Shown here one piece after another: positions 44,336 through 50,549 of a stretch of DNA of 64,000 nucleotides. Made by a program: the position numbers and the translations under genes. Source of the DNA: Patescibacteria group bacterium (GTDB lineage Bacteria; Patescibacteriota; Gracilibacteria; Peribacterales; Peribacteraceae); NCBI GenBank assembly GCA_018814875.1, contig JAHIYH010000045.1:13316-77315 (forward strand). The letters are read 5' to 3'. The notes under the pieces were generated by a model. The model was given only the letters and a program-made list of their open reading frames with translations, ran no database searches and had not been told where the DNA came from. Numbering within the stretch: position 1 is the first letter of the stretch; each line of letters starts with the position of its first letter.

Positions 44336-44396
44336 GATGAGGTGTCGGGTGTCGGGTTTTAGGTTTCAAAAACTGGTATTCAGGTTTGTTTCTGCC
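44336..44396 (+). repeat. 61-bp direct repeat, copy 1
   Basis: gatgaggtgtcgggtgtcgggttttaggtttcaaaaactggtattcagg(t/c)ttgtttctg, one mismatch versus 44718..44778. Confidence 0.8.
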
Positions 44397-44465
44397 ATTT
44401 AACACATGATACATATAAATGCAGTAATCTCTTGTTCATGTTACATGAGGTGCTATTGTCGATTT

Positions 44466-44657
44466 ATGATTGACGAAATGATGCGAGAAACATTAGAAAA
44501 TCTTTCAGAACTTTCTCCTGAACAGCGTAAGAAAGTATTGAGTGGTTTAGGTTTATCTTTAACCGCACGAAAAAATATTGAGTCTTTGCTGAAGCTATTG
44601 CCACTGGATGATGATCCTGAAATGGGAACCGGTTGTGGCGTACTGCGTCCGTCTTAG
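44466..44657 (+). CDS. small hypothetical protein (63 aa) bracketed by the 61-bp direct repeats
   Basis: MIDEMMRETLENLSELSPEQRKK...; gaggtg about 15 nt upstream; no known domain. Confidence 0.4.
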   Translation: MIDEMMRETLENLSELSPEQRKKVLSGLGLSLTARKNIESLLKLLPLDDDPEMGTGCGVLRPS

Positions 44658-44717
44658 TATCCAGAACTTCCGGGCAAAGCAGCGAAAGATCTGCCACGAA
44701 ATATTAAATAACTTTCT

Positions 44718-44796
44718 GATGAGGTGTCGGGTGTCGGGTTTTAGGTTTCAAAAACTGGTATTCAGGCTTGTTTCTGTAACCTGACACTTGACACCT
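44718..44796 (+). repeat. 61-bp direct repeat copy 2 plus complementary right arm (complete hairpin)
   Basis: aggtgtcgggtgtcgggtt pairs with aacctgacacttgacacct; both mismatches are G:U-compatible only in a plus-strand RNA. Confidence 0.7.
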
Positions 44797-44807
44797 GTAA
44801 CCTAGTC

Positions 44808-47908: not shown

Positions 47909-49255
47909 TCAGTCTTCATCCACATCCACAAACTGATCTCGCATCGTGTATGTGTCGAGTTTGTCTTTTCCGCCGAGAAGTTCGATTACTTTTGGAATAG
48001 CTTCTTCGAACGGTATCTCTTTTTGTTTTCCTGCCGCCATATCTTTCAAAATAATCGTGCCACCTTTTACTTCCATCTTACCAAGCAAGAGCGTGTAGCG
48101 TGCATCAAATTTATCTGCCAAGCGCATCTGACTCTTCAGACTTGCTTCGCCGAGTGCTCCCAATGTGTGTACACCCTTGTCACGAAGTTCTGAGATGAGT
48201 TTTAGGCATGTCTTCTTTGCCTCCGGTCCTAATTGTGCCACAAAGACATCAACTTGGTCTTTGTGTGGAACTTTTATACCAGCTTGTTTCATGTGCCAGA
48301 CTATGCGCTCGAGCCCACCAGCGAAGCCAATGCCAGGCGTAGGTTGTCCTCCAAAGAGTTCTATTAGACCGTCATAGCGTCCACCTCCGCCAACCGCATT
48401 CTGGGAGCCTGTTTCGTTGTCTAGGAATTCAAACACGGTTTGTGTGTAGTAATCTAGTCCTCGTACGAGTGTTGGATTTTCAACGTACTTAATATCCAAT
48501 TCATCCAGATATTCCAGAACTGTTTTGTGATATTCCTTACTCTCATCGTCCAAGAACTGATCCATAGCTGGTGCGTTCTTAAGAAGAATTTGAGTATCCT
48601 CTTCCTTGGAATCCAAAAGTCGAAGAGGATTAGTTTGAAGTCTTGCCTGATCAAGTTCGGGCAGATTACGTTCTTTTCCAATGAAGAAGTCTTTTAGAGC
48701 TTCGGTGTATGCTGCGCGATTCTCCGCGGTCCCAATGTTATTAATATTTAGTTCTAAGCGGTCTAGAATCTTGATGTCACCAAAGATCTTGGCTAGCACA
48801 AGAATTAGCTGCGCATCAATACTTGGATCCTTGAGCCCGATCACTTCCATATTGAATTGATGGAACTGACGGTAGCGTCCTTTCTGTGGGCGATCATGCC
48901 TAAAGCACTGACCAATGGCATATAGTTCCACTGGTTGTGGGAGTTGTTGCATCCCGTGTTCTATGAAGGATCGGCAAATACCGGCAGTAAATTCCGGGCG
49001 TAATGCAAATTTAGCTTCCTCATCTTCCTTTTGCTTGGAGGTAACCAGAAATAGCTCCTTTTCCACGATATCCGTGTGTTCGCCAATTCCACGTTCAAAG
49101 ATTGCTTTGTTCTCGAACATTGGTGTATCAATCCGCTTGTAACCAGCTTGCCTAGCTCTATGACGCACAGCTTTCTTTATATACGTCATGTATTGATGAT
49201 CCTCTGGGAGGACATCGTGTGTGCCTTTCGGTGTTCGGAATAATGGTTGTGACAT
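47909..49255 (-). CDS. hisS: histidine--tRNA ligase
   Basis: class II motifs (FRHDRPQKGRYRQF, GGGGRYDGL), 448 aa. Confidence 0.95.
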   Translation of the reverse strand: MSQPLFRTPKGTHDVLPEDHQYMTYIKKAVRHRARQAGYKRIDTPMFENKAIFERGIGEHTDIVEKELFLVTSKQKEDEEAKFALRPEFTAGICRSFIEHGMQQLPQPVELYAIGQCFRHDRPQKGRYRQFHQFNMEVIGLKDPSIDAQLILVLAKIFGDIKILDRLELNINNIGTAENRAAYTEALKDFFIGKERNLPELDQARLQTNPLRLLDSKEEDTQILLKNAPAMDQFLDDESKEYHKTVLEYLDELDIKYVENPTLVRGLDYYTQTVFEFLDNETGSQNAVGGGGRYDGLIELFGGQPTPGIGFAGGLERIVWHMKQAGIKVPHKDQVDVFVAQLGPEAKKTCLKLISELRDKGVHTLGALGEASLKSQMRLADKFDARYTLLLGKMEVKGGTIILKDMAAGKQKEIPFEEAIPKVIELLGGKDKLDTYTMRDQFVDVDED

Positions 49256-49356
49256 ATGCGGTATCTAGAAGTATAGCAGCTTAGGAGATCCCTCCGTAGC
49301 CTACGCGATAGCGGAGCGAAGGGGGATCGGTGTTCGGAATAAAGGTTGTGACATAT
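49229..49356 (-). repeat. 29-nt direct duplication of the hisS start region bracketing a 70-nt GC-rich insert
   Basis: cggtgttcggaataa(t/a)ggttgtgacatat at 49229..49257 and 49328..49356; insert contains gatccctccgtagcctacgcgatagcggagcgaagggggatc; upstream copy opens the uORF MSQPLFRTPIPLRSAIA* (49301..49354). Confidence 0.75.
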
Positions 49357-49465
49357 AAAGAGGTATTCGATTGTTGAGTGTACCGAAGTTTGGCTATCTA
49401 GCCAAGGGGTATTAAAAAGAGGAATAGTTCGCTGGCTTAGGCCTTTTCCTTTATTATTGGTATTA

Positions 49466-49522
49466 CATGGCGAGAGTAGCTTCAGCCTTCGTCCCGCTGA
49501 GGCGGGACTACGGCCGACAAGC
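49466..49522 (+). repeat. duplicated tRNA-His 5' fragment followed by GC-rich CCTTCG element
   Basis: catggcgagagtagct identical to 49561..49576; followed by cagccttcgtcccgctgaggcgggactacggccgacaagc. Confidence 0.75.
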
Positions 49523-49563
49523 AGTTGGTTCATGTTCATTCTTCAATCATCGTTGCCTATCAT

Positions 49564-49641
49564 GGCGAGAGTAGCTCAGTTGGTTAGAGCGTCCGGTTGT
49601 GGTCCGGAAGGTCGAGGGTTCAAAACCCTTCTCTCGCCCCA
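49564..49641 (+). tRNA. tRNA-His (GUG) with genome-encoded G-1 and CCA
   Basis: hand-folded cloverleaf: acceptor gcgagag/ctctcgc, extra 5' G opposite C73, D arm gctc/gagc, anticodon stem tccgg/ccgga with loop ttGTGgt, T arm gaggg-ttcaaaa-ccctt, 3' CCA. Confidence 0.9.
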
Positions 49642-49697
49642 GATTAAATATAAACACCCCCAAATGACTTTAATCACTTGGGGGCGTCTTTGAATAT

Positions 49698-50549
49698 TTA
49701 TTGATGGCTTGATACTAATCGAGTCCCTTCATCTCCAGATTCAAGAAGTAATAGAATTTTTTCTTTGGTGCCATTGCCAATGTATGCAATTCCATCTGGT
49801 ACTGCTTCAAGATAAGAATGAACTGCTCTAAGTTTTGTATCAAAGCCGCCTGTCCCATCCTTAGATTTATATTGATCGATATATGCAAATTCTCTCGAGT
49901 TTTCAATAGCTATACAAGTATCAATATCTACCTCTGTGACAAGCCGAGAATCGGAGTGCTTTGGATTTCCTGTGAACAAACCATCAACATTTGATAAAAG
50001 AAATAATGCCTTGGCAGAAATTGCACTAGCAAAATCACTCGCAAGACGGTCATTATCATTTAAAATAGGATCTTTTGCTATGAGATCATTACCATTTTCA
50101 ACAAAGAAAATAAGATCATGACCTGTTGATTCTAAGTGTATTGCTTCACGCATTACTGCTTGCAAGTTGGCAATTGCGTCATCCTCTTTGAAGTCACGTC
50201 GAGTTAATATTCCTTCAGAGGTGTGTATACGTTTATCAGTGCCTAAGTCTTTACCGGCATGAATAAAGGCATCTTCCCAACTGCGCATGAGCTTCTTTTG
50301 CCCAATAGTTGAGTAAAGTCGCTTTGCAGCATTCTTATCAAGAAAGCCGCGCTCATTGAATTCTGCTTTACCCAGCACAACTGCGCCTGAAGAGAAAAGT
50401 GCAGTCCATTTGCCTTGCAATCTTCGTTCAATTATTTCTCGTGCAATATTGTATTGTACCTGCTCGTTAATGTGCATGCCATCAACAATGCTGTTAGAAC
50501 CAGCTTTTGCTACGTAGTATTGTACCGATGATGATTCAAAATTATCCAT
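49698..50549 (-). CDS. amino-acid kinase family protein, glutamate 5-kinase-like (no PUA domain)
   Basis: KAGSNSI N-terminus, SSGAVVLG, NDNDRLASDFASAISAKALFLLSNVDGLFTGNPK resembles the ProB core. Confidence 0.55.
   Translation of the reverse strand: MDNFESSSVQYYVAKAGSNSIVDGMHINEQVQYNIAREIIERRLQGKWTALFSSGAVVLGKAEFNERGFLDKNAAKRLYSTIGQKKLMRSWEDAFIHAGKDLGTDKRIHTSEGILTRRDFKEDDAIANLQAVMREAIHLESTGHDLIFFVENGNDLIAKDPILNDNDRLASDFASAISAKALFLLSNVDGLFTGNPKHSDSRLVTEVDIDTCIAIENSREFAYIDQYKSKDGTGGFDTKLRAVHSYLEAVPDGIAYIGNGTKEKILLLLESGDEGTRLVSSHQ

Follow-up and report, generated by a model that had tools for sequence, protein, structure and literature searches.

Insertion with long target duplication is the described process that comes closest to the structure reported here, which lies at the start of hisS, the gene for histidine--tRNA ligase (HisRS), in 64,000 nt of DNA from a Patescibacteria group bacterium of the family Peribacteraceae (assembly GCA_018814875.1, contig JAHIYH010000045.1, positions 13,316 to 77,315 of the forward strand; this whole stretch is hereafter called the window). 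In the published account, such insertions have long target repeats of variable length and no mobile gene, occur mostly in naturally competent species, and have no known mechanism (Nobusato et al. 2000, cited in Furuta et al. 2010, PMC2853133). The hisS structure agrees with that account in that its repeats exceed transposase footprints by far, have a single counterpart in relatives and vary in length, and in that its insert of 69 nt consists of a hairpin and a spacer only, with no transposase, integrase or mobility gene (PMC2853133). The published cases are, however, kilobases long and carry restriction-modification genes, whereas the hisS insert is ∼70 nt and geneless (PMC2853133). It also differs in being located inside the 5′ end of an essential gene, in recurring at many tRNA genes, and in always including a hairpin similar to repetitive extragenic palindromes (REP).

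REP elements and REPINs are short GC-rich imperfect palindromes, with REP-associated tyrosine transposases (RAYT) of the Y1 HUH type (PMC3116915). The hairpin at hisS shares with them a conserved foot containing GTAG (CCGTAG on the other strand), a copy number of tens per genome and nested insertions, and Y1_Tnp homologues, as candidate enzymes, are encoded in the same genome. In contrast to REPs, the inner stem-loop varies between copies here, the CCTTCG/CTACGG foot being the only constant part. Furthermore, REPs are not known to duplicate 13–56 nt of their target, or to sit in gene starts.

The supply of a second start to a target gene is known from SXT, an integrating element that provides prfC with a new promoter and a new 5′ coding end. 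There, as at hisS, the 5′ end of an essential translation gene is hit, a replacement start is brought in, and the original start is stranded upstream. Elements of the SXT type are, however, ∼100 kb long and possess an integrase and attachment sites, whereas the hisS block is ∼100 nt and has no recombinase. The small dispersed repeats of heterocyst-forming cyanobacteria, which Elhai et al. are said to have described in 2008, reportedly sit within hairpin loops and within one another, and no enzyme is known to mobilise them. A comparable nesting is found here at tRNA genes, where a hairpin occupies position 13/14 of a pseudo tRNA copy, i.e., the start of the D-loop; the cyanobacterial repeats belong to another sequence family and another phylum, and I know of no gene-start duplication reported for them. 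Finally, leader-peptide attenuators and aminoacyl-tRNA synthetase autoregulatory leaders (his operon leader, T-box, thrS operator) also combine a short upstream open reading frame (uORF) or a stable hairpin with a gene of this kind. The hisS locus has both before a gene of the histidine/tRNA-His system, but its uORF, MSQPLFRTPIPLRSAIA, is without His, its hairpin is single, and it has no terminator/antiterminator pair and no U-tract. In the literature on Peregrinibacteria repeats and on small dispersed repeats, I found nothing describing this layout.

I propose, with a probability of roughly 0.55, that the repeat marks an old allele formed by insertion with long target duplication, in which the ancestral hisS start was stranded as a decoy uORF, and which was spread by recombination and homogenised in this genome by gene conversion. 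A ∼100-nt block (REP-like hairpin, 29-nt spacer, second start copy) would have been placed exactly after codon 9 of the original gene. The ancestral promoter and the first start copy would thereby be stranded, able to make only a 17-codon uORF that runs into the hairpin, and HisRS would be made from the second copy. Transcription of hisS would probably rely on a promoter located in the spacer, on read-through, or on a combination of the two. The allele would have arisen long before the present genome, would be present or absent among close relatives, and would pass between Peribacteria lineages by homologous recombination, with the conserved start codons and the gene body as arms. Recent gene conversion would then have homogenised the two copies in this genome, so that they look like a fresh target-site duplication.

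The duplicated start of hisS

The genome to which the window belongs (G000) spans 1.42 Mb in 70 contigs, with a GC content of 42.8%. Its hisS gene (47909–49255, minus strand) encodes a protein of 448 residues that scores 440.8 bits against the TIGR00442 equivalog model (cut-off 286.75), and HisRS orthologues in the same family are 69–91% identical. A repeat search identified a direct repeat of 30 nt, at 49228–49257 and 49327–49356, with 29 of 30 positions identical and a start-to-start distance of 99 nt. Read in the gene sense, the repeat contains AT, the ATG, codons 2–9 and an A, that is, 2 nt 5′ of the start codon, the first nine codons, and one further nucleotide. A preliminary description, made from the letters alone, had reported the same mismatch and the same distance, and its repeat length of 29 nt has to be extended by one. 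By a calculation of mine, a repeat of this quality (29/30, with the copies less than 200 nt apart) is expected ∼1e-9 times anywhere in 64 kb. The observation of a duplicated hisS start is thus correct.

The downstream copy (copy B, 49228–49257, minus strand) is the working start: its ATG (49255–49253) and codons 2–9 are contiguous with the 448-residue HisRS reading frame. The upstream copy (copy A, 49327–49356, minus strand), identified by the repeat search and by alignment with native upstream DNA, has its 2 leading nucleotides, an ATG at 49354–49352, codons 2–9 and the one extra nucleotide. On translation, this ATG opens the uORF (49301–49354, minus strand), which has 17 codons, reads MSQPLFRTPIPLRSAIA, and leads from the stranded start to a stop inside the 3′ arm of the hairpin, exactly as had been described before: the first nine HisRS residues, then termination within the element.

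The two copies are separated by 69 nt. These open with a GC-rich, palindrome-ended hairpin (49287–49328), which the preliminary description had recognized and which is 42 nt long. It possesses a GATCCC outer stem, the CCTTCG/CTACGG internal motif, and a variable inner stem-loop; the hairpin segment (49 nt) folds at −18.8 kcal/mol in RNAfold. From the hairpin foot (GATCTC) to the working ATG there is a spacer of 29 nt (49256–49284, minus strand), a length that is kept in other genomes.

A predicted ancestral promoter, P1 (49377–49405, minus strand), read by eye as TTGGCT-17 nt-TACACT, ends 22 nt 5′ of the stranded ATG, and motifs of the form TTGGCA/TTGGCG .. TACCAT/TACACT precede the single start of same-genus relatives at the equivalent position. 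The spacer contains an extended −10-like motif, TGcTATACT (49270–49278), which suggests a promoter role for it. A strict sigma-70 scan of 49150–49700 returned no promoter, and thus confirmed neither the spacer motif nor P1. I also considered the spacer as a promoter of fixed geometry (17 + 6 + 6 = 29), but this is not general, as the −10-like hexamer is correctly placed only in the type represented by G000 and the relatives' loci L100 and L175. Separately, the native hisS promoters of the single-copy loci L038, L041 and L057, and the flank of copy A in L043, show an extended −10-like TGATACnnT that ends only 8–12 nt before the ATG; a −10 box so close to the start codon makes a leaderless, or almost leaderless, hisS mRNA probable in these Peribacteria.

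A terminator scan found none at the hisS hairpin, which is followed by no T-run or U-tract. Rfam covariance models, applied to 49100–49750 with E up to 1, recovered only the neighbouring tRNA-His and a chance-level match to NsiR1 outside the leader. A T-box or other catalogued RNA leader was therefore rejected, the leader having no Rfam match.

Carriers, empty sites and the history of the allele

The same layout (copy A, hairpin, spacer and copy B; such loci are referred to as carriers) was found in 15 of 79 Peribacteria hisS genome loci. Seven further carrier loci came from two pattern scans, which covered public genomes and metagenomes, and in these scans the full pattern matched no gene but Peribacteria hisS. 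As the architecture recurs in 20+ independent assemblies, an assembly artefact or a chance arrangement is ruled out. The layout begins with the upstream start, whose nine codons, ATG included, read M-[SA]-[EQ]-x-x-[FY]-R-[TS]-P, followed by the junction ATCCCCCTTCG, the variable inner stem-loop, CTACGGnGGGATCTC, the spacer and the working ATG. The junctions are common to carriers: codon 9 runs directly into ATCCCCCTTCG, and GGGATCTC is followed by 29 nt and the ATG. The distance from hairpin foot to working ATG is 29 nt in 11 carriers, 28 nt in two and 30 nt in two, and it is also 28–30 nt in those metagenome-derived carriers that were measured, despite spacer sequences so saturated that they cannot be aligned between clades. 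The inner stem varies between carriers by complementary changes, and paired changes are seen in the outer stem of L080, L035 and L043. The homologous uORFs of these 15 loci are 17–36 codons long, and their tail and stop position vary freely; further such uORFs occur in the metagenome loci. Within one genome, copies A and B differ at 1 to 11 of 27 nt, and the distance between them ranges from 81 to 109 nt among loci, without being held in frame.

Carriers make up ∼20% of lineages, and the carrier state changes at least 10–11 times on the HisRS tree. The preliminary description had suggested a search for empty sites in related genomes, and had taken a duplication without the insert as a sign against insertion. 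Clean empty sites do exist in close relatives, in three genomes of the same genus (G005, G006 and G007) and at L038, L053 and L041, and a duplication without the insert was found in no relative. As in insertion with long target duplication, the 30-nt repeat, with weaker similarity further upstream, corresponds to a single copy at all of these sites. The indel that distinguishes the members of three sister pairs, L035/L038, L040/L053 and L043/L041, consists of precisely the hairpin, the spacer and copy B; no donor or recombination tract was detected in the gene body of these pairs, where divergence along the adjoining gene is flat. One loss is imprecise: L071 has kept the spacer and copy B but lost most of copy A and the hairpin. 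L039 has a decayed copy A in which the ATG has become ATT.

In single-start relatives of the same genus or clade, the native upstream region (with the motif CCCCTTGGC) aligns with the DNA 5′ of copy A, and copy A resembles the real start of the nearest single-copy relatives. I compared each carrier, in half-copies, to its nearest single-copy relative with at least 88% protein identity. Copy A shows 21/132 mismatches in its 5′ half and 23/132 in its 3′ half, and the 3′ half of copy B shows 25/132, against 48/132 in the 5′ half of copy B. The upstream alignment and these counts indicate that copy A is the resident, ancestral start, and the excess in the 5′ half of copy B indicates that its beginning, which reads ATGTCAGAACCnTTG in many unrelated hosts, travels with the block. 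This half is of a cassette type common to distant carriers, rather than copied from the resident start. The two repeats are therefore not both resident-like in many carriers, which possibly results from later allele transfer.

The similarity of blocks does not follow that of their hosts, since their identities are at odds: L100 and L175 have a host identity of 0.78 and a block identity of 0.86, compared to 0.87 and 0.85 for G000 and L100. L082 contains a tract of ∼350 nt, encompassing 150 nt of upstream DNA, copy A, the block and ∼75 nt of the gene, that is 95–97% identical to the L038/L166 type, while its flanks are only ∼70% identical. This is direct evidence that in this lineage the whole allele moved by homologous recombination, and a similar movement can be inferred for the others.

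The hairpin and spacer of G000, of its sister genome G001 (hisS locus L021) and of L100 form one family, with one, four and six mismatches between copies A and B, respectively. This implies a single origin, and an insertion older than the split of these genomes. Copy A of G000 is nearer to copy B of G000 than to copy A of L100, and lineage-specific bases are present in both copies (TCA at codon 2 and CGA at codon 7 in G000; GCT, TTG and TTT in L021). The near-perfect repeat of G000 is therefore best explained, from these common bases, by recent gene conversion rather than as a pristine footprint.

The target-site duplication by insertion of a small element, as put forward in the preliminary description, is right in kind and wrong in age and detail. 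There is a hairpin block in the 5′ end of hisS, its hairpin belongs to a dispersed family, and empty sites exist. The insertion is, however, neither recent nor untouched: its junctions are found across Peribacteria, where the copies differ at 4–11 of 27 nt, the 5′ half of copy B is cassette-type, the spacer is unique, and the identity of the copies would be due to gene conversion. A near-perfect long repeat around a small element may thus be an old structure refreshed by gene conversion, and should be annotated with caution as recent transposition. The locus further illustrates that essential genes tolerate DNA in their 5′ ends: in a reduced genome of the Candidate Phyla Radiation (CPR), the gene of a synthetase and numerous tRNA genes survive through a complete second start. 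It also shows that such alleles last long and are exchanged among lineages.

Weighing the readings

Several observations do not fit easily with an old insertion that left a neutral scar. A stranded start is expected to decay, yet in the scored carriers copy A retains its ATG and still has nine sense codons; in L172 this ATG lies, on my reading of the flank, one codon further upstream. Changes in copy A are mainly silent: there are 7 synonymous and 0 non-synonymous differences between L067 and L175, both of which encode MAEAKYRTP, 4 and 0 among L035, L040 and L082, and a total of 12 synonymous to 3 non-synonymous codons in the sister-pair comparisons. Copy A and the hairpin are identical over 85 nt between L034 and L054, for which the silent (third) positions of hisS differ by 20%. 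L080 has Ser at residue 8 in both copies, encoded by TCC and AGT. The spacer is fixed at 29±1 nt though its sequence is saturated, which a neutral scar does not predict. The precise boundaries in the three sister pairs are not easy to obtain by ordinary recombination with 27 nt of imperfect left homology. An origin of the spacer by copying of the native promoter DNA is weakly supported. Part of the coding-like state of copy A can be put down to each of three causes: a recent arrival of the block in each lineage, the import of copy A together with the allele (L082 is such a case), and gene conversion.

These observations raise the question of a functional leader, a possibility that the preliminary description had named as its alternative (a decoy initiation region with a regulatory function). 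Here, selection would maintain a regulatory unit made up of the stranded start, hairpin and fixed-length spacer, with a translated uORF that competes with or gates the real start. Ribosomes on the uORF might open or close the hairpin, or the upstream unit might be a short decoy RNA. The retention of nine sense codons, with the ATG in place in all scored carriers but L172, the excess of synonymous change, the lack of any difference over 85 nt in L034 and L054, the parallel Thr-to-Ser replacement in the two copies of L080, the invariant hairpin foot with its covarying inner stem, and the constant distance from hairpin to ATG in all carriers are all as expected for such a unit. I nevertheless consider it rather unlikely. 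Only about a fifth of lineages have the layout, close sisters do without the block, and the state has changed at least 10 times on the tree. Decay is tolerated, as seen from the ATT of L039 and the deletion of copy A and hairpin in L071, and the tail and stop position of the uORF are unconstrained. The uORF has no His codons, the hairpin is not followed by a U-tract, and Rfam offers no match; moreover, the same layout at tRNA genes (see below) cannot act through a peptide.

Alternatively, hairpin, spacer and start copy might form a dedicated mini mobile cassette, a non-autonomous, site-specific element that carries a replacement 5′ end and moves precisely in and out by means of a hairpin-recognising enzyme, e.g., one of the two Y1/HUH homologues. 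The resident start would then be regularly back in service, and hence intact, which agrees with its coding-like state. The exact block boundaries in three sister pairs with no gene-body recombination tract, the type of copy B 5′ half common to distant hosts, the incongruence of block similarity with host distance, the conserved foot with a ruler-like fixed length to the right end, and the two Y1_Tnp genes in the genome also argue for this possibility. It is however unlikely. No second hairpin or defined right-end structure is present, and the spacer and copy B diverge freely, with only the hairpin conserved (L034/L054). The sole traced transfer, in L082, is an ordinary homologous recombination, in which copy A and the DNA upstream of it were imported as well. 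At other loci, neither genome BLAST nor the public pattern scans yielded another copy of the block, and the tRNA instances would require a separate cassette for each tRNA. If the conserved start and the 29-nt spacing do reflect a function or a dedicated mechanism, they would represent a new leader type for translation-apparatus genes or a new, very small mobile unit, in a phylum with almost no experimental genetics.

A fresh insertion of a small element in G000, with the 30-nt repeat as its pristine target-site duplication, would account for the 29/30 identity, the dispersed-family hairpin and the empty sites of same-genus relatives, but is very improbable, as the junction is occupied by a homologous hairpin and spacer in G001 and L100 too, where copies A and B differ by 4 and 6 mismatches, the identity seen in G000 arose secondarily (derived bases are in both copies), and the spacer part is not repeated anywhere.

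Recoding, in which the upstream ATG would yield full-length HisRS through a ribosome hop from the Pro9 codon of copy A to that of copy B (translational bypass of the T4 gene 60 or mitochondrial byp type) or through removal of the block from the RNA, has in its favour the same coding-type constraint on both copies and a stable hairpin that begins right after codon 9, the would-be take-off codon, but can practically be set aside: the take-off and landing codons match in G000, L021, L043 and L100 but differ in most carriers (CCC and CCG in 10 of the 15 genome-collection carriers, CCA and CCG in L085), the next in-frame stop comes 8 codons later instead of directly after the take-off codon, the gap of ∼95 nt is roughly double the 50 nt of the known case, the distance between the copies (81–109 nt) does not preserve the reading frame, and codons 1–8 of copy B would be free to decay, yet do not.

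Hairpins and duplicated 5′ ends elsewhere in the genome

The motif CCTTCG-(variable stem-loop)-CTACGG has 30 strict and 59 loose matches in the 1.42-Mb genome, with copies often nested in each other or in tandem-word arrays. The hisS hairpin is a member of this dispersed REP-like family. In a BLAST of 11 inserts (hisS and ten tRNA-locus inserts), only the hairpin parts recurred in the genome; the 29-nt hisS spacer and the tails at tRNA loci are unique. The whole insert as a repeated miniature inverted-repeat transposable element (MITE) was rejected on this basis. In contrast to what is expected of a MITE or transposon, a full element with the same ends does not recur and the duplication length is not fixed: it is 10–30 nt for tRNA copies (37 nt, exact, at tRNA-Arg tcg) and ∼30 nt for hisS.

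Two Y1_Tnp homologues (IS200/RAYT-like, Y1/HUH) are encoded at C3:2201–2533 and C41:13850–14062. A second reverse transcriptase is present at C29:68223–68780, besides that of the diversity-generating retroelement (DGR) in the window, for a genome total of two. The Y1_Tnp homologues and this second reverse transcriptase are candidate enzymes for hairpin mobility. Hairpins of the same family flank or interrupt the RNase P RNA region (GGAGGAAAGTCCGGGC motif; C29, ∼25.1 kb, minus strand). A hairpin with the same foot (ATCCCCCTTCG..CTTCGGGGGATCTCC) is also found, not at hisS, in a contig of Doudnabacteria (L151; JAHFJK010000005.1, 1467–1531), another CPR class, and the hairpin family therefore extends beyond Peribacteria.

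The divergent neighbour of hisS, the tRNA-His gene, is a sister instance of the layout (49466–49576, plus strand). A 16-nt copy of the tRNA 5′ end (49466–49481) is followed by a hairpin of the same family (49482–49517), a tail, and the real tRNA from 49561/49565; after the hairpin, CAGTTGGTT resumes the D-loop sequence. In three Peribacteraceae genomes, I counted those tRNA genes whose initial 10–30 nt are copied upstream of the gene: there are 12 among 48 in G000, 10 among 32 in G001 (L101–L130) and 13 among 30 in G018 (L179–L208), giving 35/110 overall. The copies have a median length of 14 nt and a median period of 88 nt, start within 0–3 nt of the tRNA +1, and are in most cases followed by a GC hairpin and a unique tail. 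The hairpins fall into two classes: one, CCTTCG..CTACGG, occupies position 13/14, and the other, CCTAG-hairpin-CGTAAAAA, follows position 19–20. In many cases D-loop sequence resumes past the hairpin, which therefore interrupts, at position 13/14, a pseudo 5′ fragment of greater length.

Empty and filled tRNA sites can be paired between G000 and G001, and in these pairs the native upstream region aligns with the DNA 5′ of the copy. The sets of affected tRNAs differ between these two genomes of the same genus, which indicates fast turnover. At tRNA-Lys, the upstream copy tracks its own tRNA at position 6. In native tRNA upstream regions, TAnnnT mostly ends at −9 to −15, suggesting that transcription of tRNAs starts a few nucleotides upstream of +1. 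A duplication bounded exactly by the transcription start was considered and not retained, as the starts lie near the boundary but identity is not proven.

An event of the same kind (a copy of the first 13–20 nt, a hairpin, and a tail) is thus common at the tRNA genes of this family, which suggests a general mutational process acting on transcription-start-proximal DNA. A broader proposal, which I put forward tentatively and hold to be possible rather than likely, is that in Peribacteria an undescribed process or tiny element installs a REP-like hairpin and a second working 5′ end near the starts of highly expressed genes, with the first copy kept matched to the gene. The genes in question would be about one third of tRNA genes, hisS and possibly lysS. 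The matching is proposed because of the coding-type conservation at hisS and the behaviour of the tRNA-Lys copy; it would follow from a precise, dedicated insertion and excision, or from an expression function of copy A, hairpin and fixed spacer. The pattern at 35 of 110 tRNA genes may render the question testable on public metagenomes and metatranscriptomes.

The whole genome was scanned for direct repeats of 18 nt or more, 45–220 nt apart, around a stable hairpin. The scan recovered hisS; the few other candidates for a protein gene with a start duplication (C60:17114, C23:143761, C18, C63 and C43:90981) were discarded, as they open no long reading frames.

Some duplications of other types were also observed. 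At tRNA-Arg tcg (C7:7853–7942), the first 35 nt of the tRNA, together with the 2 nt upstream, form a perfect repeat with a period of 45 nt, whose copies are separated by an 8-nt filler only, without a hairpin. It may represent an early stage of the same process, at which no hairpin has yet arrived. Partial duplications of tRNA 3′ ends occur near tRNA-Trp, -Pro, -Arg and -Gly (C6:1979/2059, C69:4254/4327, C24:14162/14330 and C36:36849/37100). These are 18–29 nt long, include the CCA end or the T-arm, and are 73–251 nt apart, some with hairpins between them. Lastly, in the window itself, a 61-bp direct repeat with one mismatch, at 44336/44718 (44336–44803), brackets a 320-bp insert with a reading frame for 63 residues, and represents a second insertion with long target duplication.

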